Source: TPA_inf: Saccharomyces (lineage: Eukaryota). Taken from it: a stretch of 64,000 nt of DNA. The stretch spans positions 1 through 64,000 of the forward strand of contig BK006949.2 in the NCBI GenBank assembly GCA_000146045.2. Reading direction: 5' to 3'. The position numbers were made by a program, and so were the translations under genes. The notes under the pieces are model-generated. The model was not told where the DNA came from and did no database searches. It saw only the letters and a list, made by a program, of their open reading frames with translations. Positions 3,201 through 56,274 of this stretch are shown here, one piece after another. Position 1 is the stretch's first letter; every line of letters starts with the position of its first letter.

Positions 3201-6007
3201 GGAGATGAAATAACTCCGTCTTACCATAGCCCGGTGGGGCCTGTACTGCCACAGAGGGTGTGTCTGCCATGTATATTTCATGACATAAGCGCAACTGATG
3301 CAAGTCCCTGAATTCAAAGGAGCTGCCAAAGAGTTTCTGGCCTGCGACGAGGATATCGTTTGTACTCTTGGGCTCTCGGGGCCTTTTTCGCGTTACTCTT
3401 GAAATTTTTTGATGATGATCTGAACTCGCCGCCTCACCTGCCACTACGTCTTCCGCATTCCGAGTACTAGAGAATGAACAATGGTAGTCGCTTTCAAGGC
3501 CTAACCATTGAATCCAGCGCTCGGAAGCTCGTTCCTGCAATAAAGTGGCGGTCGTCCCACTGACACTAGTTAACGAAAAGGAATCCACACCGTAAATATT
3601 TCGCCCTGTTTGAACGGAATGATTGGCCATGAGTTCACTCGTCGCCGACTCGTACAAATCTGTTTCAAATCTGCTACCTACGCAGTGCCGTCCTAGGGCA
3701 ATCAACCCCTGACGCATCTCCCGAAAATTCAGCTTCTGAGGTGCATTCTTCGGAAGTTCCCTCATGTACTGCCGAAAAGTTGCGTATTCAACCAGACAGC
3801 CCTTCGCGGTATTCAGAAACATGTAGGAATACAAAACTATCCTCGAAATGTCTCGATTTGTTACTTGATCTGGATCCTCAAATCCCACCACATCCATCCA
3901 AGGATCATGATTAAAAGCGTCATAACTGTTACCAAGCGCACATATTTGCATTTGCCTTAGCACAGTGACAAAATAAAACACGTAATCTGAAGTGAGTCCG
4001 TCAAGCGTCTTAAGTCGAGGCTCCGATGAACCGTTCTTGTTGTAATCAGTGTACAGTTGGATGCGTCTTGTTGTATCATCGACGTATACGTTGCGCTGAG
4101 GACCGGCAAAAGCGAGTAGCTGAAGCTCTGGATAACGGTAAGGGTATCCTACGGCAAAATGGATCATCCACATAAGTGGCACCGTAAGCTCGTCAATTGC
4201 AACAGTGACTTTATTTTTAAGAGCCGCGGTCATTTTGTTAGTATCTCTTCTCAACTTGGGCAGCACAATTTCACGATATTTAACAGGTATCATTTGAAGG
4301 AAAGAATCGTTCTCCAGATACTCGTCAATTCCTCGCTTTGGCTCTCTGAACAAAACTTCTCGATTACGCAAAATGAGGCTGGCAATATCAACCACTGTAG
4401 GCATATAAAAGCAGTCGTTCAATTCTTCCCAAAGGTTATCAAACTGAGCCTTGCATGCAAAGTAAAAGCCGCGGACATACTCGCGATTAAACAGTTTTCC
4501 ACATACTGATACACCATCAGAAGAAGGTACCAAAGTTATTCTATAAGAGTCCTTCAGCGCGGTTTCCTGCGCTACTTCGTGGTACAGAATTTTGATCCAT
4601 TTCCACATCGCAACGCCGTTGTTGTCATCAAATATATCTAAATCCCTTGCGGTACAAGCACAAGACGACACCAATAAAGCTTTCACGGCATCTAGTGTTT
4701 TTCTGAGTCTTCGTGGAGTGTTAGGACTGCGCAACTTACATACTTTCAAGCCATGCTCGTCCACAGAGGGAATAATGGGTTCTTCATTCGTAATGGATCG
4801 ATCCTCTTCGTCACCAGCGCCACCACGGGGACCCGCCCCGAAATTGAGCGCACATGCTCGCAAGATAATATGCAAAATATCACCCAATCGGTCCTTTTTG
4901 TTCATCATATCGTTACATATCTGTGAAAAGTACTTTATCTCAGTGGGTTTACGTGGGCATAGATCACGCTTCAGCCGCTCTGTGTCGACTTTCTTTTCGC
5001 CAGGTAAACTTGCTTGGTATGCAGAAAAAATCGATAGCTCATCTACGTGTAGTAACAAAAACATGTAGGGTGCCAAATTGTATCCATATTTCCTTATGGT
5101 GCTTTTCTGAAGACCCCTTACAATAGGTGTGCCAGAAACAAAGTCAGTGAAAGTACGCATCGTAGAGCTGTCGTTCGGCCTGGCACTCGCTATTTCGTAA
5201 CAACGTTCCAGGACACGGAAACTCAACTCATTATAGTATCCTCTGTTGAGGTAAAAAAGAGAAAGGGTATCGTAATCCTTTCTATTGAATTTCAAAGTAT
5301 GCACTTGAAACAACGTGTAGACCATCAAGTTGATTTTCTTGGGAATAAGATACTTTGAAGGGATTGGTCCGCCCTGGAAATCTGGTTCGTCTTCAACAAA
5401 CGTCAGGAACTTTTGTACATTTTTCCCGACCATGACGGAAACGACAATTTTTTCAAAAGACCTTTTCCTATCCATTGCACCAGTTCTGAATTTTACCACT
5501 TTGATTAGACCAGACTTTTCGTCTTCGTAGAATGACCGCACTTCCGTGGGGATCGATTCAAATAAAGTTATTGAGGGACAATGTACCAAGTCGTTTTTGT
5601 TATTTAGAGCCGACTCAAACTCGTCAAAGTTTGCTTTTTCAAACTTACGCCTATCGGAAACTTTCATTTTATTTTTGTAAGTTTCGAAATTAACAATAGT
5701 ATGTTGATTGTTATGCTTTTTGACAAGAAATCCATCAATATAAACAAAAGATTGTCCAGTTTCCGTCTTATCATCATCTAAGAATGTAATAATTAAGCTA
5801 TTGAGAAGATGCAGAATCTGCGCTATGCAGGTGCAAATCTCTAGCAGCAGCAAAGTAAATTCAGTTAGTAAGAAATCTCACTAAGATAAGCGACTGTCTG
5901 TCCCCTTCAAGCACAACATAGAAAGCAGAAGGATGTCTCATTCATCGCTTGATTTCCGGCCTGCAAAAATAAAGTAGTCGGTACGTACGTTCGTTTTCAA
6001 TTTCCAT
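280..6007 (-). CDS. YRF1-7: Y'-encoded DNA helicase (YRF1 family), spliced: complement join(280..5840, 5989..6007), 1859 aa
   Basis: The 1857-aa track ORF has helicase motifs (APPGYGKTE Walker A, VDEFHNF box) and the YRF1 family sequence. Its apparent start is a TTG artefact. The real ATG is at 6007-6005; the 19-nt exon 1 ATGGAAATTGAAAACGAAC reads MEIENEQ and joins in frame to ICTCIAQ, the recognisable YRF1 N-terminus. Confidence 0.9.
1476..1912. repeat. About 12 copies of a 36-bp (12-codon) tandem repeat inside the YRF1 ORF, encoding a Ser/Thr/Asn/Ala-rich tract
   Basis: Direct repeats of agtggtagtagcactagtgttggagttggtactttc variants. The protein shows [26 protein letters not shown] repeated. 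Spurious ORFs open on the other frames and the opposite strand. Confidence 0.9.
5841..5988 (-). other. Spliceosomal intron of the YRF1 gene (148 nt)
   Basis: On the minus strand the 5' splice site GTACGT sits immediately after exon 1, the branchpoint TACTAAC is at 5870-5864, and the 3' TAG|AG acceptor at 5843-5841 restores the reading frame. Confidence 0.75.
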
Positions 6008-6790: not shown

Positions 6791-7480
6791 ACACATATAC
6801 TTACCCTACCACCACATGCCGTATCCACCCTCACTTGTATACTGATATGGCATACGCACACGGATGCTACAGTATATATCATCTCAAGTTACCCTACTCT
6901 CACATTCCACTCCATGGCCCATCTCTCACTTCATCAGTACTAAATGCACTCACATCATTATTAACGGCACTTGCCTCAGCGGTCTATACCCTGTGCCATT
7001 TACGCATAACTCCCACGATTATCCACATTTTAATATCTATATCTCATTCGGCGGCCCCAAATATTGTATAACTGCTCTTAATACATACGTTATACCACTT
7101 TTACACCGTATACTAACCACTTAATTTATATACACTTATGTTAATATAACCAAAAAATCACCATCAAAATCACCTAAACATAAAAATATTCCATTCTTCA
7201 ACAATAATACATAAACATATTGACTTGAAGTACGAGCACTACCATGACGTCATTAACGTAAAAGTTCCTTAATATTCCCATTTGCTTGAACGGATGCCAC
7301 TTCAGAATATTTCGTACTTACACAGACTTCACATTAGAATATTATGTCATCCCATTGTTGTGACACTCTTTATTCACCGAGCAATAATACGGTAGTGGCT
7401 CACACACATGTGGGCGCTATCCCCTCAACTCTATTCCAGTTACAGTTACATAAAAAACTAACCTAACAAAGAAATAATAA
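6790..7480. repeat. Core X element (approximate extent)
   Basis: Sits between the STR repeats and the first unique gene, contains an 11/11 ARS consensus, and is AT-rich and non-coding. Confidence 0.45.
7175..7185 (-). promoter_or_regulatory. ARS consensus sequence (ACS) of the core X replication origin
   Basis: Plus-strand taaacataaaa is TTTTATGTTTA on the minus strand, an 11/11 match to WTTTAYRTTTW. Confidence 0.55.
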
Positions 7481-7932
7481 TATTTATGTCACAAAAATCA
7501 GGGTCTCTTGCTATGACTTGCTACTTGTTTTGCCCTGATCTGCAATCTTATTTTTAAAAGTGACGCATATTCTATAAACGACCCCGAGGCGACGCGCCAA
7601 AAAATGAAAAAAAGGAAGGACACATTTTTATAGAAAGACAAAAGGCTGCGAAGCCGCACATTTCCAAGTTCAGTATTGCTTATTGGACATACCCTATTAG
7701 CTTTATTACCATGCACCCTTTTCCAGAACAGTGACGCAAAAGAGAAGTTTCTATTTTGGGTTTATTGTATTGAGAAAATACTCCACAAACACTGTTATTG
7801 ATCAAAAATGAGTTGTCATATTAATATACATTTACATATGAGAAATTGTATTTATATCAATAGAATAACATATTTTATTTCATTTTCTTTACTTTTTAAT
7901 GTCTATGGAATTTCGTTCGTAAAAGCTTCTCT

Positions 7933-8427
7933 CTATTTTGGAATAGCAGTGTAGATACCGTCCTTAGATAGAGCACTGGAGATAGCCGGTCTCAATCTGG
8001 TAGAGTACCATGGGACACCAGTGATGACTCTGGTGACTTGTTCAGCTGGAATACCAGTCAACATGGTGGTGAAGTCACCATAGTTGAAAACAGCTTCAGC
8101 AATCTCAACTGGGTAGGTCTCTGTTGGATGAGCTGCTTGAAACAAGTAGTATTGAGCCAAATGAGCTCTGATATCGGAGACGTAAACACCCAATTCGACC
8201 AAGTTGACTCTTTCGTCAGATGGAGATAGAGTGGTAGTGGCTGGAGCAGCGGCAACACCGGCAGCGATAGCGGCAACACCAGCAGCGATTGAAGTTAATT
8301 TGACCATTGTATTTGTTTTGTTTGTTAGTGCTGATATAAGCTTAACAGGAAAGAAATGAATAAAGACATATTCTCGAAGGCATATAGTTGAAGTATCTCT
8401 ATTTATACCTATTCCTTCATTGGTCAT
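7933..8427 (-). CDS. PAU22: Seripauperin (PAU family) protein. The ORF as annotated from the upstream in-frame ATG is 164 aa; the conserved PAU N-terminus [13 protein letters not shown] begins at 8307
   Basis: The protein [54 protein letters not shown]... is a typical PAU/seripauperin. The gene sits directly inside the X element, as PAU genes typically do. Confidence 0.85.
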
Positions 8428-8766
8428 CACCACTTAAACGATTCGTTAACAGATGCTCCTTTAGCACTTCACATATTCTCCATATCTCATCTTTCCCACA
8501 ACTTCATGATCACTATGAAGATGTTTTTGTTTTTAAACGAGGCATGCATCTTTATAGATTCTGTATGCGAAGGTATTGTTTTCTGGGGCCTTTGTCTATT
8601 CGTATGCGCCGAATGTGAGAATGCCAGTTATAGGGGTGCCGAGGTGCCTTATAAAACCCTTTTCCGTGCCTGTGATACTTCCTTTTTTGGTATAGCAGAA
8701 TGTCTGAATTTAGTTGCTATAGATCCTCGTTCAGAAGCGTATTGCTAAGCCTATCTCCAGTATACC

Positions 8767-8774
8767 CTAAACGA
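8767..8774 (-). promoter_or_regulatory. Candidate AR1 / sterol-response (Upc2-type) element TCGTTTAG in the PAU22 promoter
   Basis: Plus-strand ctaaacga reads TCGTTTAG on the PAU22 coding strand, about 340 bp upstream of the ATG. It matches the TCGTTYAG anaerobic-response motif of the PAU/DAN/TIR genes. Confidence 0.35.
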
Positions 8775-9518
8775 TCGCCGAGAAAAAATAATACTGTACC
8801 CTCCTATTTCCCGGAATTGTACAGAATAGTAGGTATGTGCTGGGAGTCGTATATTGTTAGAGTCTGTAATTTTTACGCGCGCCTAGTGGATTCGTTGATA
8901 CGATTACGTTATTCTAAACCGTCGCAAAGCAAATTGTGTTGAAGTAATTCAAGACTTTAAATCACTTGTACCAAAATCATTGTTGCGAAAACTTATCCTC
9001 AGTATTAGTTTCTTGACCGTAACAGTAGTTGAAAAAAATAAAATCATTTCTATGATCGATACACTTTCATTATTTAACTTCTCTATTATGGTGTAACTTC
9101 TTACTTTTGTCAGAAAAAAAGATTTCAAGACACAACAAGAATGGGGTCAAAGGTCTGCTTGTACTATCAGGAAGATTTGATACCAACCGCGTTATAAGGG
9201 TTACTAGAAAGTAATAGCTGCTAAAAAATTTAAACCGAAGAGATTAATCAGAAAGCTGAAAAACTGCAGTGTTAGTAGAGTTGTAAGCATTTCTTGATTG
9301 GAACAGCCTTCCCCCACACGTCCACCCTTGTTCAGACAGATTCGTAATGATTTTGTGTGTAGGCAATGGAAAACTTTAAAAACGGTTTGATTTCCTACAA
9401 GATAAAACATATGAATAAAATAACTTGTGTCAAATGCCCCATTTCCATACTGTAACCCAAATCAACGAAATAAAAAATAAAACCTCATATGATTTACTTT
9501 ATTTAGTCATAAAAAAAC

Positions 9519-9539
9519 AAAAAAAAAAAAAAAAAAAAA
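9519..9539. other. Homopolymeric A21 tract just 3' of ERR2
   Basis: An uninterrupted run of 21 A at 9519..9539. Confidence 0.9.
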
Positions 9540-9556
9540 GGAAACAAGACAATCCT

Positions 9557-10870
9557 TTATAGTTTGTTTCCATCATGAAACCTATGACCAGCATATATAC
9601 AATCGTCCCCCAGTTCCTCTTCGATACGCAAAAGTTCATTATACTTGGCCAGTCTTTCTGATCTCGACAAAGCGCCCGATTTAATTTGACCACATCTTAA
9701 ACCAACGACCAAATCAGCGATAAACGGATCTTCGGTTTCACCTGATCTATGCGATATCATTACACCCCATCCAGCATCGAAAGCCTGATTGGCGGCTTCA
9801 ATAGACTCAGTCAGAGTACCGATCTGGTTGAGTTTCAGCAACAGAGTATTCGCACATTTCTCCTCTATAGCACGGGCGATCCTGGTCTTGTTGGTGCATG
9901 TCAGGTCATCTGCAATAATCTGAACATTGACAGTCTTTAGGAAGGCAGACCACGAGGACCAATCATCTTCGGCGTAGGGATCTTCCAGGGAAATGATTGG
10001 GTATTTCTTTAGCAATGAATGGTAATATTCTGCTAACTGGGCTGGACTGAGCCAGTGAGATGGGTCAGAGTTCGGTTCCTTGAAATTTAGGTCGTATTTC
10101 CCGTCCTTATAAAAAACAGAAGGAGCACTATCGATTCCTACTTTCACTCTACCCTCGTAACCGCATATGTTAATGGCTTCCACAATCATGTCCAAGGCGT
10201 CTTCGGCAGTGTCAATATCGGGGGCAACTCCACCCTCGTCACCAACATTTCCAGCGGAAGGTCCATATTGCTCCTTCGCCAATATCTTCAAATGATGGTA
10301 AACTTCCGAACCCATCCTCATGGCTTCTGCAAAGCTCTGAGCCCCGACTGGCGCGATCTTGAATTCTTGCATAGCTAAAGAGCCACCGGCGTGGGCTCCA
10401 CCATTCAAAACATTGAAAAAAGGAACAGGAATAACAAAGGGGTCCTGTCTAGCATCCGCTAACTCGGCTATATACTTGTAGAGAGTAATTCCCTTTTGTG
10501 CGGCAGCAGCTCGAGCAACGCACAAGGAAACACCAAGGATAGCATTGGCGCCCAACCTTGACTTGTTAGAAGTTCCGTCTAACGATATCATGAGCTCGTC
10601 TATGCCCTTCTGATTGGTTACACATAATTCGGACTTGATTAAAGCAGGCCCTATGATACTATTGACGTTACTGACTGCCTTGGTCACCCCTTTTCCCATC
10701 CATTCGGACTTGTTCCCGTCTCTAAGTTCAACAGCTTCGTGAATGCCGGTGGAGGCACCAGATGGGACGATCGCTCTGAAGAGACCATTCTCTGTTGTAA
10801 TTTCAACCTCAACAGTCGGATTGCCGCGAGAATCATACACCGTTCTAGCATGTACCTTCGTGATGGACAT
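9557..10870 (-). CDS. ERR2: Enolase-related subtelomeric protein (enolase fold, 437 aa)
   Basis: [23 protein letters not shown]... with the full enolase signature ([16 protein letters not shown]). Start taken at the conserved Met, not the upstream [11 protein letters not shown] extension. Confidence 0.9.
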
Positions 10871-11695
10871 ATTTTTATCGTTGAGATTCGATTTTTTCCT
10901 CACCTTGTTTTGGTATTTCTATTGCAAGACAAAGTGAAAGAAGAAGAAGTGGTGGTAAAAAATAACTATATATAATGAAAATTGTAACCTGGTGGGAGTG
11001 CAAACTGTAAGTGATAACCTGCCAGATCCATGTTTCTATTATATACCTAAGAACCAGCCAAGTTAGGTAAACGAGGAGTCTTTCAATATCTCTTTTCTAG
11101 TGAGAATGTTATTTAGGTAAATGAACAAGTTACCACTATACTACTCACCCCCTACACTTTGTTTGTGACCTCTCCCCTTATCCAGTTCATCGAAACTTTT
11201 TTTTCAACTTGTGGCGATCTGTGACATTGTCTACTACAAGAACCGATTTTGGTTGATGTCTGTAAAAAAAACAACCTTACCTTTCCAGATCCAACTTTCC
11301 AGGAGAGCTGCGTGAGTTTCAAATATTTACCATGTCGGAGAAAGCTCCCAAGTACTTCCTTGTTCTTGTCATTTTTTCCTTATCTCCATCCTTTAAGGAA
11401 GGTATTTCCATTATGCGATTCTATAAATCCGAGCATGCGAGTATTTCTTTTCTTGGCGCGGAGTCGCTGATGACGCAATAGGCACATTCACGAACATCCA
11501 GGACTGGTAATCTTCTCGTCTTAAAGAAAATCCAACCACCAGTAAGAAACTCTTGGGTAAAATGGGGTATCTGAAATATTGCATAGCTGCAAATGAAGAT
11601 ATTCAGTATCAGCATAGGTATTTTCATGAAGGATAGGTAAAAAGAAAGAAAAGAAAAATATCTTTTTGACTGTTGTTCTTGCAATTATCACAATT

Positions 11696-11741
11696 AGGGG
11701 ACTTTAAAACCGATACTTGATATATGAGCACAGTCAAGGGG
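11696..11741 (+). promoter_or_regulatory. Two STRE (AGGGG) stress-response elements in the HSP32 promoter
   Basis: AGGGG at 11696-11700 and at 11737-11741, 150-190 bp upstream of the HSP32 ATG. This is consistent with Msn2/4-dependent induction of Hsp31-family genes. Confidence 0.4.
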
Positions 11742-11886
11742 CCGGTTCTTGAGATTTTAATGGAAAAGAGGAAAGTTGCACATACAGGTCTGCTTTTCTT
11801 TGCTTGCTCCAGACAACGATACTTAGAACTAAAACATATTTCTAGAACACTTTTCTCCTTCATTCAAAAAGAAAACTGGCCTTGCA

Positions 11887-12600
11887 ATGACTCCAAAAAG
11901 AGCGCTAATATCTCTTACTTCATACCACGGTCCCTTCTATAAAGATGGTGCGAAAACAGGCGTTTTTGTAGTTGAGATTTTGCGGTCGTTCGATACTTTC
12001 GAAAAGCATGGTTTCGAAGTGGACTTCGTTTCTGAGACTGGTGGATTTGGCTGGGATGAACATTACTTGCCAAAGAGCTTTATTGGTGGCGAAGATAAGA
12101 TGAACTTTGAAACGAAAAATTCCGCCTTCAATAAGGCGTTAGCGAGGATCAAGACCGCAAATGAAGTCAACGCCAGCGACTATAAAATATTCTTTGCATC
12201 TGCTGGACATGGTGCTCTATTTGACTATCCCAAAGCTAAAAATCTGCAAGATATTGCATCCAAGATATATGCCAATGGGGGTGTGATCGCTGCCATCTGT
12301 CATGGACCGCTCCTTTTCGATGGATTAATAGATATCAAAACAACAAGACCATTAATCGAAGGCAAAGCTATAACAGGTTTCCCACTCGAGGGTGAAATCG
12401 CCCTGGGAGTTGACGACATCTTGAGGAGCAGAAAATTGACAACGGTTGAACGCGTTGCAAACAAGAATGGAGCCAAGTACTTGGCGCCAATCCATCCCTG
12501 GGATGACTACTCTATTACAGATGGAAAGCTAGTTACGGGTGTTAACGCAAATTCTTCCTATTCGACCACAATTAGAGCTATAAACGCATTATATAGCTGA
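11887..12600 (+). CDS. HSP32: DJ-1/PfpI family protein, Hsp31 paralog (glyoxalase/chaperone-like), 237 aa
   Basis: The protein carries the conserved AICHGP active-site region and is the HSP32/HSP33/SNO4 sequence. Confidence 0.9.
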
Positions 12601-13227
12601 AACAAAAGACAAGGGAATTGTTGAAGGGGAGGCTTCTAATGGCTTTCAGTTTCTGTGAAGAGAAGGCTAACAGCTCAATGGTTCGAAAGGTAAAGAAAAC
12701 GGCAGGTCGGTAGCACTCGATTTTGCTAGAATGGAAATCATATAGAGAACAATTGAATAGTAGGCCTTGGTTTTTAGTGTTGTACTCATCATGGTCATAT
12801 GTGACATAGGTAATGTACATATATATATAAAAAAAAAAAAAGCAATGCTGTGAGATCATTCGTTACTTACGAAATACGCAGATTGCAATTTGAAATAAGC
12901 TGTGTTTTCTTTTTTTTCCTTTTTTTTTCTTTTTTTTGGCTTGTTATATACAACTTTTTTCTATTTCTGTTCTTTTTAGAAGTAATTAATTGGTACATAG
13001 GAAATAAATATGAATTATATTAAATGAAGTAAAAGTAAAAGAAAACGGGGAAATTTATCGTTTTGTAGTAAATAGATGATGGAACGCATTCATAAAATCT
13101 CACAAAATATTACAATAAACCGCAGTAGTCGGTAAAAATGTATTATACAACGTCTAAAATCTTGAAAATGAATTAAAAAAAAAAAAAGGTGGGATGATTG
13201 TGCAGGAAAAGGTATGAAGAAAAGATC

Positions 13228-14355
13228 CTAACAAATCGGGTTAGTCAATCCTCTAGTCCAAGCATAGGATCCGAGAGTTATCACCAATAAGCAATATGAA
13301 ATTCCAATCGAAACAGTATAATAAATAAGCATGTTAATAAATGATAGCTTATACCCTTCATTGATAAACGTGCTAATGGTACTCAAAGTGCCGCAAAATC
13401 CGGATATTAACGCAGAAACAATATGGCATGAATTCAACGAGTTCACAATTGGAATATCCGTGGAAAAGTGTTTTTTACCACGTTGCACCATGGTAAATAT
13501 GCCAATCAATAAAGTGGCGAAAACGTTTGCCAAGAAAGTACCCAATGGAAACTTTTTGTTTGTTTTATTAAACATTTCTGCCAACCAATATCTTAGGAAA
13601 CCAGCGAAAATTCCAAATAGACATGGTAGTGTCCACTTGCCCCTCGAATAGTTCTCATAATACGCACACAGCACCACAAACAAAATAATTAATGGAAAAG
13701 CTAGTGCGTACGCGAGTTTATCCACAACATCAAAAAATTTCTTAAAAAATGGTGCTGGAGTTTTGAATTTAAACTCTAGAATATTTTTTTCCATTTCTTG
13801 TGTATCAACATCACCAGCATTTTCCTTTACAGTGTCTGAGGGAGGGGTATATGGCTTCGAAAACGAACTAGATCCATAAGCAACAATAACCTCCTTACCA
13901 AGTTGCCTACCGAAAATAAGACTACCCATGGAAACCATAAGATGAACGAGCAAGACAGATAAAAACTCCATTATACCGTAAGCTCTGTTCGGCAGTTTTG
14001 TGTGGTTAGCGATATTACCGTTAGTTAAGTTTGTAGAGTGTTCGAACATCTCTAGCAGCATACTAGAAAAGGAAGACAGGGCACCACAGTACCCAGTAGT
14101 TACACCTAAAAACAAGACTTGGTGATCTTTCATCCAAGTGTAAGCATTTAAAGATTGCATAATCCCCATTAGCATGCAGGATGAACAATTAGACCAGAGA
14201 ACGGTCGGAGCAGTAACGAAGGCCGGAGTGTAGGTGGAAAGCGCCGTTATAGCCTGACGTGTTTCAGTACCTAATATGCAGAACGTGGTGAATGTACAAA
14301 AAACATGAATATAATGGCTCAACTTGTGATTTGATATGACCGGATTGAAAATCAT
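13228..14355 (-). CDS. FEX2: Fluoride export channel (CrcB/Fluc tandem-repeat family), 375 aa
   Basis: Multi-pass membrane protein with the FEX1/FEX2 sequence and a duplicated CrcB-like domain architecture. Confidence 0.9.
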   Translation of the reverse strand: MIFNPVISNHKLSHYIHVFCTFTTFCILGTETRQAITALSTYTPAFVTAPTVLWSNCSSCMLMGIMQSLNAYTWMKDHQVLFLGVTTGYCGALSSFSSMLLEMFEHSTNLTNGNIANHTKLPNRAYGIMEFLSVLLVHLMVSMGSLIFGRQLGKEVIVAYGSSSFSKPYTPPSDTVKENAGDVDTQEMEKNILEFKFKTPAPFFKKFFDVVDKLAYALAFPLIILFVVLCAYYENYSRGKWTLPCLFGIFAGFLRYWLAEMFNKTNKKFPLGTFLANVFATLLIGIFTMVQRGKKHFSTDIPIVNSLNSCHIVSALISGFCGTLSTISTFINEGYKLSFINMLIYYTVSIGISYCLLVITLGSYAWTRGLTNPIC

Positions 14356-15052
14356 CAGAGCATTACACGCTCGATTAAATAATTAAATAACTGCAGATTC
14401 TTGAGCCACCAGACGCTAAATAATAATGGCGGCAATAAATATAATCCTTTAGTACTTATTTCAGTTGTTTTTTGTTTTATTTTTTCCGTATCTCTTCCGT
14501 ATCTCTTCCATCATTGCGTCAAAAGTGATTTACACTGCTACATGAATCGCGCCACTTTATGTCAGTGAATCTTTCATACATCGCAACTCCTCACTGACAG
14601 TGACTCTAGCAGAGTCACCATCTTTTCGATATACCCATCAAAGTGCACGATTCTCCTCCCCTGTTAGACAATCGTAACGTAATATCGACATGTATTCGTA
14701 GCACCGCTGCCAAATAATTTTCAGATCGTTCATTGTACATGAACCAAGCGCTGTTGCTTTACTTTATGATATTGCTGCTGAGCTCCCTTGTCTTTCATAC
14801 GACGTTTTATCTTGATTTCATATCTTTTTTTTTTGGTAAAATAGAAAATACTCAACAGATATCTGATATGTATATAAACACTAAATAAAGAAAATCTTAA
14901 ATCTTGCTGGCATGACTGTCGCTGTGTCTCAAATCTCTTAGTAATTCATAGATGTGTATCACCCCAAATCTCAAAAACTTCATAATTATTATTGGATTAT
15001 CTAGAAATCATACCCTTCATACTGTCCCACAATGGCCTGCTCACATGAGGCG

Positions 15053-15355
15053 CTAATGATTACGATTAACCATCAAATCATTTATATTGATACACTGTAG
15101 TTTACTGTTAATAACCAACCTTTGTCGAGATTCATCAAAGTGGGTTCCAAATCCCTCATTGTGGGAACCTGGTTCAGTCATACCCATTGGAGATGGGCCC
15201 CAGGAAGGAGTGTAACAAACTTCATCCCAATTGCATTGCCTCTCACAACGGTAATTTAGTTCAATCCACCCTAGAGATTCAATTAAACCATCGATAGTGG
15301 AGCGAGCCGTTTCGACATTCTTTATTAAGTCGCTGGAAGTTGTGTTATCTGTCAT
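15053..15355 (-). CDS. C-terminal 100-aa fragment of the same disrupted gene, in another frame
   Basis: The ORF 15053..15487 overlaps the 3' end of the 487-aa ORF in another frame. The 100 aa from MTDNTTSSDL continue the homologous protein, matching YPL278C. Confidence 0.55.
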   Translation of the reverse strand: MTDNTTSSDLIKNVETARSTIDGLIESLGWIELNYRCERQCNWDEVCYTPSWGPSPMGMTEPGSHNEGFGTHFDESRQRLVINSKLQCININDLMVNRNH

Positions 15356-15404
15356 AAAAGAGTAGACTTCGGGTATCAATAAATCATTCACTTTATAAAT
15401 GACA

Positions 15405-16868
15405 TCAACAATTTCTCCGACAACGCTGACAGCAGATGACCAAATCAAAAAGTCTGCATCCGTTTTTAAGGCCTGGTATGGGCTCACATATTGGTAGACA
15501 AAAGTTCAATGTGAGTGCTGTTGCATTGATGGCAATTGACTCATTAATATCACCATCGCTGTTCAGTATGTTACTAACAGATTTTAGTAATGGAGCAAAT
15601 TTAAGGACAAGCTCATCAAATGCTAACTGCCAATCCATACTTTGCGTGGCATCAAATCCGACTTCCAGCGCCTTTTCTAAGTCATCTACCATGTCCAATT
15701 GCTTTTCCCATGTCATTCCTTCATCGAGTAATCTTCTGTTGTTAGGATCAGGAGCAATGTACGTCCTGTTTATCCCGCTCACTAGGTACCTATAGTCGAT
15801 ATGGATTCGATGCTCCCCGTTGTCATGCGCTGCACCCGCTCTCAACTGATTGAAGCTTTTAACTGCGTTGAAATTAGAAAAAGCCTTCTCCCAACCATCT
15901 TCTCTTTCCAGAATCGCCTTTTGGTCATCTGTTAGCTGATCTTCAACTAGGCTTCCATTTTCATCCAGAGGCCAACCTTCTTCCTTCGATATTACGGTAG
16001 GTGCTGGTAAGCCTAGGTACTGGTTAGGCTGGACCATTTCTAACATTGAAACAAGTTCGACGTTATCAGCCGAAAAATCACACAAAACGACCTCAAAGCC
16101 AACCTCTACCCTGATAATTCCGTCAAGCCCGAATGGCTTCCCCCATTTGCATATTCTAGCAGCGTAGAGTCGTTCGGCCATTCGTTCGTTTTCACCATCA
16201 TCTGTAAGGTTCAATTTCTCTTTAATAACATTTGACAACATTAGCTGCGTGTCCATCTCTCCTGAGTCAGTTTTCGCAGCAGAAGCCCCATCAAGATAGA
16301 GAAATTTGTTGAGGTCCCGTGCTGCTCTATAAGTAAGCATTTTTTGTGAACCCCGACCTTTTTCGTCTGGTGGTGGTGGTGGTGGTGGTGGCCCTTTTGG
16401 ATGATCACCGTTGGTGCCATTGCCGAACCTCCCATGCCTTCTTTCCAAAGATTTTCTCCCATAGGATGGTGACCTCAAGCCGAAAGAGTAGCTGAATTCA
16501 TGGTCCATAGCTAGCCATTCGAAGGTAGTTGGCACTTTTGATCCGGCATGGTACATTAAAGTTCCTTTGGGAATTACAGCGGGAAAATAAGATACTCCGA
16601 CAGGATGTATATCCGATGGAGACTGTCTTAAAGCAGCCCGAATGGAATTAAAGATAGCCGTACTGTTATCAAAATCAATGTCTCTGACGAACTCATGGTA
16701 ATTATCCCATCGTATAGAAGGTAAGTCTGTGCTTTTAATTGCAGATTGATTGTGTGGTAGGGCAGTTGATACTATGCCGTAAGATCCAGATAACTTCCAA
16801 CAGAAACCAAGCAGTACAATGAGTAGTACGCCTATGATGGCTGAGATACCTTGACGATGGAATCGCAT
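15405..16868 (-). CDS. N-terminal 487-aa fragment of a YOR389W-type secreted/membrane protein of unknown function, ending at the frameshift
   Basis: N-terminal signal/TM segment, then a poly-Pro run (8 P) encoded by (CCA)8. The ORF stops at 15405 while the next reading frame continues the protein, giving YPL277C-like coordinates. Confidence 0.8.
   Translation of the reverse strand: MRFHRQGISAIIGVLLIVLLGFCWKLSGSYGIVSTALPHNQSAIKSTDLPSIRWDNYHEFVRDIDFDNSTAIFNSIRAALRQSPSDIHPVGVSYFPAVIPKGTLMYHAGSKVPTTFEWLAMDHEFSYSFGLRSPSYGRKSLERRHGRFGNGTNGDHPKGPPPPPPPPDEKGRGSQKMLTYRAARDLNKFLYLDGASAAKTDSGEMDTQLMLSNVIKEKLNLTDDGENERMAERLYAARICKWGKPFGLDGIIRVEVGFEVVLCDFSADNVELVSMLEMVQPNQYLGLPAPTVISKEEGWPLDENGSLVEDQLTDDQKAILEREDGWEKAFSNFNAVKSFNQLRAGAAHDNGEHRIHIDYRYLVSGINRTYIAPDPNNRRLLDEGMTWEKQLDMVDDLEKALEVGFDATQSMDWQLAFDELVLKFAPLLKSVSNILNSDGDINESIAINATALTLNFCLPICEPIPGLKNGCRLFDLVICCQRCRRNC
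16366..16389. repeat. (TGG)8 trinucleotide microsatellite encoding Pro8 in YPL277C
   Basis: tggtggtggtggtggtggtggtgg at 16366..16389. The opposite frame reads HHHHHHH. Confidence 0.9.
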
Positions 16869-17947
16869 TCTCTATCTAAACAGTGGTCAATGGATTCTTC
16901 GAGAGCTAAGACCATAGATTTCTTAAAAGAATTTTTTTTTTTTTTTCTGTCCTCCTAATATCTTTTATCTTTAATACTGTAGGGGCGCAAGTTTCTTTTT
17001 TTTTTTTTTTTTATGTTGCGTTTAGTTTTTCTCTTGGCAAAAGTTTTTCGCACCCCGATCTTTTTTTGCATACGTAGTTCACTGCCGCTGCTTACGGCAG
17101 CGTTTCACTTTGTTTGGAGAACGGTTGTTAACTTGTATTTGATATGGTGTCGAGACAATGTCATTGCAAGTTATATAAACATTGTAATACATCACCTCGA
17201 TGAAAGAGAAACTGGAATGATAGATCTCTTTTTCTCAAAATTTCGTTAATATGTAATAATAAGGTTCCTGATGTAATTTGTTTTTGTACAAATTATTTTA
17301 GATTCTGGAGGTTCAAATAAAATATATATTACAGCCAACGATTAGGGGGGACAAGACTTGATTACACATTTTTCGTTGGTAACTTGACTCTTTTATGAAA
17401 AGAAAACATTAAGTTGAAGGTGCACGCTTGAGGCGCTCCTTTTTCATGGTGCTTAGCAGCAGATGAAAGTGTCAGAAGTTACCTATTTTGTCACCATTTG
17501 AGAATAAGCTTGAAAGAAAGTTGTAACCCCAACTTTTCTATCTTGCACTTGTTTGGACCAACAGCCAAACGGCTTATCCCTTTTCTTTTCCCTTATAATC
17601 GGGAATTTCCTTACTAGGAAGGCACCGATACTATAACTCCGAATGAAAAAGACATGCCAGTAATAAAAATAATTGATGTTATGCGGAATATACTATTCTT
17701 GGATTATTCACTGTTAACTAAAAGTTGGAGAAATCACTCTGCACTGTCAATCATTGAAAAAAAGAACATATAAAAGGGCACAAAATCGAGTCTTTTTTAA
17801 TGAGTTCTTGCTGAGGAAAATTTAGTTAATATATCATTTACATAAAACATGCATATTATTGTGTTGTACTTTCTTTATTCATTTTAAGCAGGAATAATTA
17901 CAAGTATTGCAACGCTAATCAAATCGAAATAACAGCTGAAAATTAAT

Positions 17948-18385
17948 ATGTCGAAGGGAAAGGTTTTGCTGGTTCTTTATGAAGGTGGTAAGCATGCTGA
18001 AGAGCAGGAAAAGTTATTGGGGTGTATTGAAAATGAACTTGGTATCAGAAATTTCATTGAAGAACAGGGATACGAGTTGGTTACTACCATTGACAAGGAC
18101 CCTGAGCCAACCTCAACGGTAGACAGGGAGTTGAAAGACGCTGAAATTGTCATTACTACGCCCTTTTTCCCCGCCTACATCTCGAGAAACAGGATTGCAG
18201 AAGCTCCTAACCTGAAGCTCTGTGTAACCGCTGGCGTCGGTTCAGACCATGTCGATTTAGAAGCTGCAAATGAACGGAAAATCACGGTCACCGAAGTTAC
18301 TGGTTCTAACGTCGTTTCTGTCGCAGAGCACGTTATGGCCACAATTTTGGTTTTGATAAGAAACTATAATGGTGGTCATCAATAA
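17948..18385 (+). CDS. FDH N-terminal fragment (145 aa, YPL276W-type)
   Basis: The protein [36 protein letters not shown]...NYNGGHQ then stops. Confidence 0.8.
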
Positions 18386-19079
18386 GCAATTAATGGTGAG
18401 TGGGATATTGCCGGCGTGGCTAAAAAATGAGTATGATCTGGAAGACAAAATAATTTCAACGGTAGGTGCCGGTAGAATTGGATATAGGGTTCTGGAAAGA
18501 TTGGTCGCATTTAATCCGAAGAAGTTACTGTACTACGACTACCAGGAACTACCTGCGGAAGCAATCAATAGATTGAACGAGGCCAGCAAGCTTTTCAATG
18601 GCAGAGGTGATATTGTTCAGAGAGTAGAGAAATTGGAGGATATGGTTGCTCAGTCAGATGTTGTTACCATCAACTGTCCATTGCACAAGGACTCAAGGGG
18701 TTTATTCAATAAAAAGCTTATTTCCCACATGAAAGATGGTGCATACTTGGTGAATACCGCTAGAGGTGCTATTTGTGTCGCAGAAGATGTTGCCGAGGCA
18801 GTCAAGTCTGGTAAATTGGCTGGCTATGGTGGTGATGTCTGGGATAAGCAACCAGCACCAAAAGACCATCCCTGGAGGACTATGGACAATAAGGACCACG
18901 TGGGAAACGCAATGACTGTTCATATCAGTGGCACATCTCTGCATGCTCAAAAGAGGTACGCTCAGGGAGTAAAGAACATCCTAAATAGTTACTTTTCCAA
19001 AAAGTTTGATTACCGTCCACAGGATATTATTGTGCAGAATGGTTCTTATGCCACCAGAGCTTATGGACAGAAGAAATAA
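18369..19079 (+). CDS. FDH C-terminal fragment (236 aa, YPL275W-type)
   Basis: After about 17 out-of-frame residues the protein matches the FDH C-terminus (NAD-binding GAGRIGYRV ... [11 protein letters not shown]). Confidence 0.8.
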
Positions 19080-22000
19080 GAGTGATTATGAGTATTTGTG
19101 AGCAGAAGTTTTCCGGTCTCCTTTTGTTCTTGTTTTGGCGTATTCTCCACTATTCGTCCATAGCACATTTATACCTTAGCTAAATATTTTGTAAAGCAAA
19201 ATTTTCGTTATCTCTTAAAAAATAGAAGAGCGGTTTATTAATATCAAATAATTGAAACTGCTGATATGGTAGCTATATACAAAATCTGCTGTCAAAATTT
19301 GGCAGTAAACGATCTTCACGGTAGCGGTTCAAATAAAGAGGAAAAGTCCTTCTCCCTTACTGTTTTTCTGGAATTTGGCTCGTCGTTAATAACAGAACTA
19401 AAGATACAGTAAAAGGAGAGATCGCAATCAACTTCATTAATTGTAACAGTAGCATAATCACAACTGGTTATCTGCGTTATAGACAATTCTTACTCACAAT
19501 GATGGGCGCTTAGTTGGCTGTAAACGTCGCTTTTTAAAACTCCGAAAAGTTACCGCTACAGAAAAAAACCATAAATGTATGCTAGTTGCGCAGAGAGGTT
19601 TAGGGTCCAAAATTTACTACCCTGTCGCTCACTACAGCGACTGTCCCGAATTAAGCCCGAAGAGACGCAGAACTGTTGTATGAACCTCATGAAACCACTG
19701 ATCTTGAAGATTTAGACCTTCAGAATCGTTTTCAATTAGAAGTATACAAGAAGTCTTTGTACAATAATGTCAAGACAGAGCTCTGAATTATAGTTCAGCC
19801 TTGTTATTTTTTTTTCCCTGGTTGCTAATTTGTATCTTGTCTAATGAAAATAATTTGAGGCAACGTAATGTTACCAATGTACAACTGTTTTTTTCCTCTC
19901 GTTAGCTTCGTTCTTGCTGTATTCACGAGCTTTTTTTTTTTGACTCTTCCCTAAATTCTTATATCAAGTGTAATTTTCAATAATATTTGATTCCAGTTTA
20001 GCGTACCTCGAGTTTTGCCTACCTAAAATGCAAATGCGATCTGCAAGAATTTCTATTGAAAGTACAACTTTAGTTCCAAATCTCCAATTTTTGATTGCTC
20101 AAAAGTAAATGATACTTTACCGTCCCTAGACTTCGGAGGGCCTAATATATTCTCAAGTATATTCAAATTTATGACGCCAGTAAAGGTAAATATATTATGA
20201 ATATAGAAGCCACAGACTTAGATGTTTGTATTAGGAGATGCTTTCCTTGTCGACGCATATGTTGTCTATGACATAGAAAACCCACGGACTTTCAATGCTC
20301 AGGCAAGTTTTAAAAATCGCGAAGAAGACATTAAAATAATATTTGATAAAGCCGCTGGTGCCATTTCGCTTCTGATGCTTTAGCTGATGGTTTACGCATC
20401 TAGTAGCCGAATTGGAACAGAATATTTCTCTGACATAGCCATGCCTATAGAGTCTACAACTTTTTGGCGTCTGTAAATATTCTTCTACAGCCCTGATGCA
20501 AGTGGAAGTTCTACTTGTTTGAATAGTTCAAGTTTCAATGAAAGGACCATCAAGAAGAAAAATTGGGAGTATAGACGCCGTCGATCAAATGTCTCCTTTC
20601 CATTATTATCTTCCTTATCTTATCTTCTTTCTATATGGTTTGCATAGCGGAAAAGACACACAGGCGGGAATTTTACAATTTAATAACCTCCTTTATACGT
20701 CCGCTTTTTTACATATATGTGTTATTCATTAGTTGTACGATACCCTTCATGTCTTTATTCACTGACCAATCTCTCCTCTAGGAAAGTTCAGGGGCACCGT
20801 CAATTGATAGAACAAAGCAAACACTATGAATACTTTCTTCTGGTACACATAACAATTGCTAGGGTCTGATTTCAAAATGATGGTGATGATAAAAATAAGT
20901 CCTGCTTCTTAAAGCTTTTGACATTACCGTGTACAAAATTATCAGACCATCTTCCTCTTTTCTGAGAATGAAATGAAAAATTTTGTAACTGACATAGCGG
21001 AGACAGTTTCACAAGTAATTTGGTGCTAACTGTTGTTTGACCTTTAGGAAATTTTCTAGTAAAAGGAAGAATTCATATGAAGATGGTAGTGTTTTAATGT
21101 GGGTGCTTTTGTTATGGGAGTGCTACAATGATAGGCCATTGTCAAAGTTTGGAAACAGTAGACTTCAATGGTAAATAAAGTTAAATTTAAGGCGATTCCG
21201 ATGAAATCTGTCTTTCAGAAGGTTTGTTATCTCTAATGCTAATCTTTAACATTTACGCCACTTGGAGTGGAATATACGTTCAAGTTCTTTTTGACATGCA
21301 TTCTGGTCTCGACCTACTAACTTCTTACGCTACTTTCTTGGATTGGATGCGTTGCTTCTAGTACCTCTTCCTGCAAAACTTGATCCTATAATTGGAACAG
21401 TTCTTGCACACCTTTCTTTTGATTGACGGTACAAAAATTTTAGCTTTCTCAGGAACTTCGGCGTTTTTGAGCAGATTCAGTTGCATTCTTCAGCAGTAAC
21501 ACGCTGGAGTTTTTACGAATGTAGGCAGTATAAAGCAGGATCATGAAGTATGGTGAACTGGATGTGCGCAGAAATCCGACAGAATACGTCAAAAATATTG
21601 TACGTGTCAAACTTCCCTTGTAAAGATTGTCGAGTTTATTTTGACACTATGGTGTTGGCACCCTCTGCTTTGTTTTTAGCTTACAATTGAGGAGAGATGC
21701 ATAAGCATATTTGTTTTTCTTACGCTGAGCAATAGACAGGAAAATAAATGGCGCTTACTACTCAACCCACTGTGTTAGAACCAAAAACAACACAGCTTCA
21801 AAAATGATACGTGCCATTTGATGGTAATACAGAGGCCGTAGTAGTGTTTCAATCAATAGAATACTAGAAATTGCAACACAGGTCAAAAAGAGAATAAAAA
21901 AATGTTAGGGGTTCATAGTTAAAAATATGATATGTTTTTGAGTTTGGGGAGAAAAGGCTGCTTTTGTTCCATAGTGCGTCTTTTAAAAATTTTCATCCTT

Positions 22001-22937: not shown

Positions 22938-24701
22938 ATGGATATACTCAAGAGGGGAAATGAATCGGACAAGTTTACGAAAATAGAGACAGAATCTACT
23001 ACGATACCAAATGACTCGGATAGATCTGGTTCACTGATCAGAAGAATGAAGGATTCCTTCAAGCAAAGTAACCTGCATGTCATTCCAGAAGACCTTGAAA
23101 ACAGCGAACAGACAGAGCAGGAAAAAATCCAATGGAAACTAGCTTCTCAGCCCTATCAAAAAGTCTTGAGCCAAAGGCACTTGACCATGATTGCCATAGG
23201 TGGTACTTTGGGGACGGGACTGTTCATTGGTTTAGGTTATTCTTTGGCATCTGGGCCAGCCGCTTTGCTAATCGGTTTTTTGTTAGTTGGTACTTCAATG
23301 TTCTGTGTCGTTCAGAGTGCCGCAGAGCTTTCCTGCCAATTCCCGGTTTCTGGCTCATATGCCACACATGTCAGTAGGTTCATAGATGAATCGGTTGGCT
23401 TTACTGTGGCTACAAACTATGCTTTGGCTTGGCTGATTTCTTTTCCAAGCGAATTAATTGGTTGTGCACTTACTATTTCATACTGGAACCAAACGGTTAA
23501 TCCGGCTGTTTGGGTGGCCATTTTTTATGTTTTCATTATGGTACTGAACTTGTTTGGTGTGAGAGGCTTTGCCGAGACTGAGTTTGCTCTGTCAATCATT
23601 AAGGTTATTGCTATATTTATTTTCATCATTATTGGTATCGTCCTTATTGCCGGAGGGGGGCCTAACTCTACTGGTTATATTGGCGCCAAATACTGGCACG
23701 ACCCAGGTGCCTTCGCAAAACCTGTCTTCAAGAATTTGTGTAACACATTCGTTTCTGCTGCTTTTTCCTTTGGTGGTAGTGAGTTAGTGCTGTTAACTAG
23801 TACAGAATCTAAAAATATTTCAGCTATATCACGTGCTGCCAAAGGTACGTTCTGGAGAATCGCGATTTTTTACATTACTACCGTTGTCATTATTGGATGT
23901 CTCGTACCTTATAACGACCCCAGACTGCTCAGTGGTTCGAACAGTGAGGATGTATCTGCCTCTCCCTTTGTTATTGCTTTGAGTAATACAGGATCAATGG
24001 GTGCAAAAGTTTCCAACTTTATGAATGTCGTTATCCTTGTTGCGGTTGTGTCAGTTTGCAATTCTTGCGTTTATGCTTCTTCAAGACTAATTCAAGCTTT
24101 AGGTGCATCTGGCCAACTTCCTTCGGTATGTTCCTACATGGACAGAAAGGGTAGGCCTTTGGTTGGCATTGGGATTAGTGGTGCATTTGGTCTTTTAGGT
24201 TTTCTTGTGGCCTCGAAAAAGGAGGACGAGGTCTTCACTTGGCTTTTCGCCCTTTGTTCCATTTCATCATTCTTCACCTGGTTCTGTATTTGTATGTCAC
24301 AAATTAGATTTAGGATGGCTTTGAAAGCTCAAGGAAGATCCAATGACGAAATAGCTTACAAATCCATACTGGGTGTTTATGGTGGAATTTTGGGGTGTGT
24401 GCTAAATGCATTGCTAATTGCGGGTGAAATATACGTATCGGCCGCCCCGGTCGGTAGCCCTAGCTCCGCTGAAGCCTTCTTTGAATACTGTTTAAGTATT
24501 CCAATCATGATTGTTGTTTATTTTGCACATAGGTTTTATCGAAGAGATTGGAAACACTTCTACATCAAGAGGAGTGAGATCGATCTGGATACTGGGTGTT
24601 CCGTGGAGAATCTAGAGCTTTTCAAAGCACAAAAAGAAGCTGAGGAACAACTCATTGCTTCTAAGCCATTCTATTACAAAATCTACAGATTTTGGTGTTA
24701 G
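22938..24701 (+). CDS. SAM3: High-affinity S-adenosylmethionine permease (APC amino-acid permease family), 587 aa
   Basis: 12-TM amino-acid permease whose sequence matches SAM3. The adjacent SAM4 supports the call. Confidence 0.9.
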   Translation: MDILKRGNESDKFTKIETESTTIPNDSDRSGSLIRRMKDSFKQSNLHVIPEDLENSEQTEQEKIQWKLASQPYQKVLSQRHLTMIAIGGTLGTGLFIGLGYSLASGPAALLIGFLLVGTSMFCVVQSAAELSCQFPVSGSYATHVSRFIDESVGFTVATNYALAWLISFPSELIGCALTISYWNQTVNPAVWVAIFYVFIMVLNLFGVRGFAETEFALSIIKVIAIFIFIIIGIVLIAGGGPNSTGYIGAKYWHDPGAFAKPVFKNLCNTFVSAAFSFGGSELVLLTSTESKNISAISRAAKGTFWRIAIFYITTVVIIGCLVPYNDPRLLSGSNSEDVSASPFVIALSNTGSMGAKVSNFMNVVILVAVVSVCNSCVYASSRLIQALGASGQLPSVCSYMDRKGRPLVGIGISGAFGLLGFLVASKKEDEVFTWLFALCSISSFFTWFCICMSQIRFRMALKAQGRSNDEIAYKSILGVYGGILGCVLNALLIAGEIYVSAAPVGSPSSAEAFFEYCLSIPIMIVVYFAHRFYRRDWKHFYIKRSEIDLDTGCSVENLELFKAQKEAEEQLIASKPFYYKIYRFWC

Positions 24702-56168: not shown

Positions 56169-56274
56169 TGAAACGGACAGGAATTGAACCTGCAACCCTT
56201 CGATTGCAATCTTATTCCGTGGAATTTCCAAGATTTAATTGGAGTCGAAAGCTCTACCATTGAGCCACCGCTTC
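56169..56274 (-). tRNA. tW(CCA): tRNA-Trp (anticodon CCA) with a 34-nt intron
   Basis: The reverse complement reads GAAGCGGTGGCTCAATGGTAGAGCTTTCGACTCCAA[intron]ATCGAAGGGTTGCAGGTTCAATTCCTGTCCGTTTCA, with the GGTTCAATTCC box B present. Confidence 0.9.

Follow-up and report, generated by a model that had tools for sequence, protein, structure and literature searches.

Gene Content of the Left End of Chromosome XVI

The DNA analysed here, a stretch of 64,000 nucleotides (contig BK006949.2, forward strand; hereafter the window), begins with the left end of Saccharomyces cerevisiae chromosome XVI (XVI-L), where the region described here runs from YPL283C, the Y′ helicase gene, through YPL275W (FDH2) to YPL274W of the reference annotation. 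Its subtelomeric part harbors a block of five genes, namely an enolase-related gene (ERR type), a DJ-1/PfpI gene (HSP3x type), a CrcB fluoride-export gene (FEX type), a YOR389W-type gene and an FDH gene, and it is this block, its twin at chromosome XV's right end (XV-R) and the lesions in two of its members that are considered below. All five genes were found at the positions, in the order and in the orientation that an earlier note on this DNA had given them, as shown in Table 1.

Three members of the block are intact, as that note had read them, with full-length products of 437, 237 and 375 aa that contain the expected domains. The ERR-type open reading frame (ORF) matches both Enolase_N (PF03952, E = 3.2e-57) and the TIM-barrel Enolase_C (PF00113, E = 4.7e-137), the HSP3x ORF matches DJ-1_PfpI with 34.3 bits against a Pfam cutoff of 26.6, and the FEX-type ORF matches CRCB (PF02537) in two stretches of one polypeptide. 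The YOR389W-type gene and FDH are each split over two ORFs.

Table 1. Features of the chromosome XVI left end in the window, with their differences from the XV-R locus L015.
Feature	Position	Strand	Description	Differences from L015 (differing/compared sites)
Y′ element helicase ORF	280-5853	-	1857 aa; marks the chromosome end	
Seripauperin (PAU) gene	7933-8427	-	Pfam SRP1_TIP1, E = 5.6e-26	1/2157 (PAU region)
Enolase-related gene (ERR type), intact	9557-10870	-	437 aa, one uninterrupted ORF	0/1314
DJ-1/PfpI gene (HSP3x type), intact	11887-12600	+	237 aa; Pfam DJ-1_PfpI	4/714
CrcB fluoride-export gene (FEX type), intact	13228-14355	-	375 aa; two-domain	8/1128
YOR389W-type gene, 3′ part	15053-15500	-	ORF 15053-15487; overlaps the 5′-part ORF	
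YOR389W-type gene, 5′ part	15405-16868	-	487-aa ORF	44/1813 (gene)
Divergent promoter, YOR389W-type gene/FDH	16869-17947		most diverged stretch of the block	159/1053
FDH 5′ part (catalytic domain)	17948-18385	+	Pfam 2-Hacid_dh	3/1131 (FDH)
FDH 3′ part (NAD-binding domain), shifted frame	18428-19079	+	Pfam 2-Hacid_dh_C, E = 1.2e-35 (ORF 18369-19079)	
FDH 3′ flank, within the homogenised tract	19080-19466		near-zero differences from XV-R	1/387
Old diverged duplication edge	19467-19640		unique XVI-L sequence proximal to the edge	

Collinear Twin Block on Chromosome XV Right

The loci used for comparison (numbered with the prefix L) are contigs of public assemblies, many of them found through the exact ERR and HSP3x proteins of the window, which in many strains are the same on both ends. 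The XV-R loci come from the assemblies of other strains and not from the window's own genome, and only in S. kudriavzevii were both ends obtained from the same assembly. Positions 1-20870 of the window are 100% identical to L016, a locus lying at the very first base of its contig, and L043 is likewise 100% identical; the assembly that matches the window identically is GCA_010356925.1 (XVI-L-type contig).

The block mirrors one on XV-R, as the earlier note had proposed. Near the end of chromosome-XV-sized contigs of ~1.05-1.15 Mb (L013-L015, L017, L018, L020, L037, L038, L040, L041, L044 and L045), the genes follow one another in the order photolyase, Vel1p-family gene, FDH (376 aa), YOR389W-type gene (623-625 aa), CrcB (375 aa), DJ-1 (237 aa), enolase (437 aa), PAU and X/Y′ elements. 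The flank of the twin block is made up of the photolyase (PHR1) and Vel1p-family genes (>15 loci), in place of the SAM3-type amino-acid permease gene, which in the window lies at 22938-24701 after 3.9 kb without long ORFs. The ~12 kb between positions 7406 and 19466 of the window is 97-100% identical to the XV-R loci, intergenic DNA included, and this similarity is far beyond chance; identity of the window to XV-R of S. paradoxus is ~80%. Collinearity holds from 7406 in all XV-R loci, and the match to L015 reaches back to base 1 of the window. L015 shows no difference from the window over 7000-11500, and 4 differences among ~1500 aligned bases over 17948-19466.

At the level of single genes, the ERR-type gene has the same nucleotide sequence as its XV-R counterparts in L015 and L018, its differences from those in L013 and L014 are all synonymous, and one of the four HSP3x substitutions and three of the eight FEX-type substitutions relative to L015 are nonsynonymous. 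The 624-aa cluster representative of the YOR389W type (P0004) differs from the L015 allele at 19 residues.

In the reference annotation the twin block runs from YOR388C FDH1 to YOR394W PAU21. The published order on chromosome XV right is YOR389W, YOR390W, HSP33, YOR392W, ERR1 and PAU21, distal to PHR1 (PMC2869308). Searches of the literature turned up no XV-R/XVI-L duplication block under a name of its own. A third, partial copy, with HSP3x beside an ERR and a PAU gene and with proteins that fall into the same 90% clusters, would lie at XIII-R. YMR322C SNO4 is listed as the first subtelomeric gene in a published table (PMC12157680). Two XV-R ends, L044 (134-6028, EC1118 contig FN394216.1) and L041 (1-5896), have no PAU or Y′ element distal to the enolase gene and carry genes for an MFS transporter, a fungal transcription factor and an amino-acid transporter there, consistent with the 65-kb insertion of wine strains (PMC2869308).

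Lesions in FDH and the YOR389W-Type Gene

Compared with the intact 376-codon gene of L015, the FDH gene of the window differs by three substitutions and one insertion, and exactly two of these changes are lesions. One of the two, C to T at FDH nucleotide 436, converts Gln146 from CAA to TAA (18383-18385), and the insertion of an extra A extends an A5 run to A6 at 18422-18427 (+), which gives a +1 frameshift at nucleotide 474. This is the stop plus frameshift that had been claimed for FDH2, and the two changes always co-occur in the loci examined. The 3′ ORF (18369-19079) begins with 20 codons (18369-18428) that are outside the FDH frame, so that both domains are present, parted by TAA146 and the frameshift, and no continuous FDH ORF of ~376 codons was found. 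The FDH of the window is thus, as predicted from its reading frames, a null allele. The step from A5 to A6 might have arisen by +1 slippage in the A run.

The frameshift claimed for the YOR389W-type gene was likewise borne out, and it comes from a deletion: 62 bp are missing relative to every intact allele, and the broken frame meets its first stop at alignment codon 488. The deletion junction (15495-15501, minus strand) lies inside the microhomology TGTCTA and is bracketed by two direct repeats that match imperfectly, ACTTTTGTCTA and ACTTTGCTGTCTA, a pattern typical of slippage or microhomology-mediated deletion; replication slippage is probably what removed the segment. The last 32 codons (15408-15503) of the 487-aa ORF are out of frame, with the stop at 15405-15407, and the 3′ part keeps the original frame and aligns with codons ~478-624 of the intact 624-aa alleles. 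The same 62 bp are missing in L001, L002, L021 and L023, and are retained in all XV-R loci as well as in L004 and L024. L002 and L023 have gained additional frameshifts in this gene. A proline run of the gene (PPPPPPPP, window ~16391) varies in 3-bp steps among the alleles (+3 or -3 relative to L015).

Homologues of 614-660 aa across the Saccharomycetaceae carry both PF27671 (YPL277C_N) and PF27673 (YPL277C_C), and the window encodes no full-length YOR389W/YPL277C-family protein (~620-625 aa). These two families are newer than the local Pfam copy and their matches come precomputed; the local scan of both YOR389W-type ORFs of the window, made with the copy that lacks PF27671 and PF27673, returned no family.

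Mosaic Identity and Haplotypes Shared between the Two Ends

Substantial variation in identity was observed along the block, as shown in the last column of Table 1. Relative to the closest XV-R allele, identity is 100% from PAU to ERR, 98-99% from HSP to FEX, 85% in the promoter shared by FDH and the YOR389W-type gene, and ~99.7% in FDH, a patchwork which argues against a single duplication with clock-like divergence. Two haplotypes of the promoter (16869-17947) were found, ~14-15% apart (141-159 differences per ~1050 sites), and both occur at both chromosome ends. The haplotype of the window is present at XVI-L (window, L001, L002, L023 and L024) and at XV-R (L014, L017, L018 and L020), the window differing from these XV-R copies at 2-16 of ~1070 sites, and the alternative haplotype is present at XV-R in L015 and L013 and at XVI-L in L021.

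Between the two ends, synonymous substitutions per synonymous site (dS) range from 0 to 0.066 in S. cerevisiae, compared with 0.31-0.55 between S. cerevisiae and S. paradoxus and about 1.3-1.4 between S. cerevisiae and S. kudriavzevii. In one assembly of S. kudriavzevii the FDH and YOR389W-type pair lies beside SAM3/SAM4 at one end and beside the Vel1p-family gene and PHR1 at the other; these copies share 98% identity across 9.4 kb, with a dS of 0.004-0.007, and encode the same 622-aa protein. The duplication is therefore probably older than the split from S. kudriavzevii, and the near-identity of the ends within that species, set against the deep dS between species, is most simply explained by an old duplication with repeated homogenisation.

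Other differences in the block were noted among the species. IMP dehydrogenase genes, and not FEX, HSP3x and ERR, lie distal to the FDH and YOR389W-type pair at both ends of S. kudriavzevii (L032 and L033, 13843-15415), so that the distal content of the block differs between species. XV-R of S. paradoxus (L031, 16875-17414) has only a 179-aa Enolase_C fragment at the position of the 437-aa enolase, and it appears that a different member of the block has decayed there. In S. uvarum (L035, a chromosome 8 end) no gene was called beyond that of the YOR389W type (620 aa), and no FDH was called beside it; since this is a different chromosome end, the subtelomeric location of the family has shifted between species.

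Boundary of the Duplication

Identity to the XV-R loci L015, L017, L018 and L020 stays at ~100% up to position 19466 and falls abruptly to ~70% from 19467. Over the 387 sites of 19080-19466 the window shows no difference from L018 and a single one from each of L017 and L020, as from L015, and its identity to XV-R of S. paradoxus in this segment is 72%. Beyond the step an older, diverged layer was detected by local alignment, with 72% identity to S. cerevisiae XV-R (L015) over 19470-19578 (E = 1.7e-12) and 74% to S. paradoxus XV-R over 19468-19629 (E = 6e-25), and past ~19640 identity is down to ~42%, the background level for unrelated sequences. When this layer was aligned for all sequences together, XVI-L was 66% identical both to XV-R and to S. 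paradoxus XV-R, and the two XV-R sequences were 75% identical to each other. As these three comparisons are about equally diverged, the original duplication would be at least as old as the split between S. cerevisiae and S. paradoxus, an age suggested by few sites.

Four short-read contigs from different runs that contain the permease gene (L025, L026, L028 and L029) all start at window position 19437. This point, 30 nt ahead of the identity step, is where assembly from k-mers would be expected to stop at a repeat, and it marks the repeat edge independently. The border between core and subtelomere on XVI-L has been placed between SAM3 and FDH2 (PMC12157680). Scans for tRNA genes, Rfam families and tandem repeats found nothing at the boundary that would explain its position.

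On the distal side, the XV-R loci have a PAU gene placed likewise and the homology runs on into telomere-associated repeats, so that the duplication is terminal, with one proximal boundary, rather than internal and bounded by two breakpoints. The extent of 9557-19079 given in the earlier note is accordingly correct as far as it goes, since it lies within the shared tract, and too small, as the tract continues through PAU and X/Y′ distally and to 19466 proximally, with old homology to ~19640. The breakpoints that were to be located along with per-gene ratios of nonsynonymous to synonymous substitution rates (dN/dS) proved to be a single boundary rather than a pair; the ratios are not raised in the broken genes (see below). 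Sir1, DEAD and Helicase_C domains are present in the homologous Y′ ORFs of L015, L016 and L043. The window opens inside a Y′ element, and its initial 300 bases contain no telomeric repeat. Elsewhere in the 64 kb, the sole Rfam match is a tRNA at 56169-56274 (minus strand), whose match spans 106 bp against a model of 71 positions, which is suggestive of an intron; the ARAGORN scan covered only positions 1-30000.

Polymorphism and Constraint of the Broken Genes

All three lesions occur together in loci anchored on the SAM3 side, namely the window (with the identical L016 and L043), L001/L022, L002, L021 and L023. The SAM3-linked locus L024 has both FDH and the YOR389W-type gene intact, and L027, also SAM3-linked, has an intact FDH. 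The XV-R-anchored loci mostly carry intact copies of both genes, and the double lesion of FDH was observed on four of them, L012, L020 (1723-2855), L036 and L039, and also on L019, a chromosome-XV-sized contig without an XV-R flank marker. In L020 it stands beside an undeleted YOR389W-type gene. L012, L036, L039 and L019 belong to one assembly series (accessions CP005xxx/CP006xxx), of which L011 is a sister assembly, and L020 is outside this series. Because L011 has N exactly at the sites that distinguish the paralogs, the contigs of the series were treated as possibly paralog-mixed, and those with the FDH double lesion may be collapsed or mis-assigned paralogs. Private lesions were observed on XV-R in L017/L038 (GCA_030036055.1), with one additional A at FDH nucleotide 1000 and one base lost at nucleotide 563 of CrcB/FEX, which indicates that null alleles arise on either end.

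Apart from the deletion, two synonymous changes are all that separates the broken YOR389W-type gene of the window from the intact allele that L017 carries on XV-R. The dN/dS of the broken gene is 0.19, that of the three intact genes ranges from 0 to 0.28, and FDH, with three substitutions, has too few changes for an estimate. Between species, omega of the FDH and YOR389W-type genes is 0.02-0.10, which signifies strong purifying selection. With only one or two lesions per gene, a dN/dS of 0.19 and intact alleles at the same end, the two genes do not resemble long-decayed pseudogenes. Their near-identity to intact alleles, the unrelaxed constraint and the polymorphism together indicate that the lesions, as judged from the alleles compared, are young, segregating null alleles and neither fixed pseudogenes nor the outcome of long-term decay.

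Probable Concerted Evolution of the Two Ends and Alternative Explanations

These results are best explained, with a probability of about 0.88, by an old terminal duplication under concerted evolution in which young null alleles segregate. The XVI-L and XV-R ends would have been made alike repeatedly by ectopic recombination between chromosome ends, and the pattern of identity suggests that break-induced replication reaching as far as the telomere may have contributed, together with gene conversion over shorter tracts. The null alleles would be tolerated, since XV-R normally carries each gene in intact form. A further proposal, which we put forward tentatively and hold to be more doubtful than probable, is that the two ends constitute one exchanging two-locus system in which loss-of-function haplotypes are repaired from the intact twin and the FDH null haplotype has also been copied onto XV-R by gene conversion, the 19466/19467 step being a recurrent tract end.

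Several points weigh against concerted evolution as described here. No recombination event was observed directly, chromosomes were assigned to the loci from contig size and flanking genes, and the comparison within the same genome depends on the unproven premise that L015 is S288C-like. The argument from the old edge uses only ~110-160 aligned bases, and the location of the FDH null haplotype on XV-R is independently evidenced by L020 only. Near-identical ends within each species could also have come about if genes had been duplicated recently, and separately in S. cerevisiae and S. kudriavzevii, to this one pair of ends, although this would be less parsimonious.

The earlier note had presented the locus as a case of differential decay after segmental duplication, that is, a single duplication followed by independent divergence, with the XVI-L copy progressively decaying at two loci and three genes being kept by selection. 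Such a history is in keeping with the breakage in this copy of two of the five genes, which most XV-R loci have intact, and with the low dN/dS (0-0.28) of the three intact genes. However, it would lead one to expect uniform divergence in place of a patchwork from 100% to 85%, and it leaves unexplained the deep haplotypes common to both ends, the sharp step at 19466/19467 that gives way to an older and diverged layer, and the two-end pair of S. kudriavzevii at a dS below 0.01. The broken genes, moreover, show no relaxed constraint, are nearly identical to intact alleles and bear lesions that are polymorphic at XVI-L, so that this history is considered unlikely and the claim of differential decay is not supported in that form.

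It might also be asked whether the genes are really intact and the lesions are artefacts of sequencing or assembly, such as homopolymer miscalls or paralog collapse, given that the FDH frameshift sits in an A5/A6 homopolymer, a classic site of error, and that some public assemblies do mix paralogs (L011, with N at the diagnostic sites). This we find scarcely credible, since the same three lesions recur in the independent SAM3-linked assemblies L001/L022, L002, L021, L023 and L016/L043, neither the 62-bp deletion nor the C to T nonsense change is an error of the homopolymer kind, and the literature has the S288c FDH2 as truncated, with YPL275W/YPL276W and YPL277C as separate reference ORFs. If the lesions are real, the split ORFs could still function as separate polypeptides or by recoding, through the 487-aa product, the FDH fragments or both. 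The 487-aa ORF keeps ~78% of the protein, its equivalents in L016 and L043 match both YPL277C_N and YPL277C_C in the precomputed Pfam data, and the sequence of the broken genes is still conserved, but the youth of the lesions explains this conservation equally well. FDH would require read-through of the stop followed, within 40 nt, by a -1 shift, for which no recoding signal was seen (none was searched for), and its break, which falls midway through the Rossmann region, parts the catalytic domain from the NAD-binding one. The further frameshifts in the YOR389W-type gene of L002 and L023 fit an allele free of selection, and continued function of the split genes is thus very improbable.

Relation to Known Systems and Implications

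The locus is already annotated, and the findings fit the well-known behaviour of yeast subtelomeres. In content, order, orientation and ORF lengths the window is the same as the XVI-L subtelomere of S288C, no difference being found, and the likeness includes the pair of a 487-aa and a short ORF and the FDH pair of 145 aa and 236 aa. In CEN.PK the XVI-L gene has been annotated as YOR389W (PMC5812507). FEX1 and FEX2 were reported to be only three amino acids apart, recently duplicated and redundant in single deletions (PMC5417652), and the FEX-type copy of the window does not differ from this, being likewise a two-domain protein of 375 aa that is three residues off the XV-R copy. The FDH1/FDH2 pair and the window share the domains of the D-2-hydroxyacid dehydrogenase fold, and the FDH2 of the window differs as a predicted null allele; 'FDH1 and truncated FDH2' are described for S288c (10.1101/2023.07.10.548313). 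As in the Hsp31 mini-family (HSP31, HSP32, HSP33 and SNO4/HSP34), the HSP3x gene of the window encodes a 237-aa DJ-1/PfpI protein at a chromosome end, and three paralogs of that family are telomeric and >90% alike (PMC4981205). Subtelomeric concerted evolution in yeasts offers the closest parallel, since here too the tract is terminal and runs to the telomere, identity within a species far exceeds that between species, the tract boundary is sharp and haplotypes are found across ends; for the block of the window the mechanism is suggested by the sequence pattern.

The block can therefore be regarded as a textbook-style case of a terminal duplication that is kept alike by exchange and in which redundancy lets null alleles segregate. 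If true, the presence of the FDH null on XV-R would mean that a pseudogene allele is spreading between chromosome ends, which is only a mildly interesting lead from one assembly (L020). Short-read assemblies blend the two copies, as the N sites of L011 and the contig breaks at 19437 illustrate. Because conversion resets the clock, dN/dS between the paralogs and estimates of duplication age that are taken from such blocks are misleading. The status of FDH2 and of YPL277C/YPL278C is strain-specific, and this is relevant to the engineering of formate metabolism and to gene lists based on S288C.

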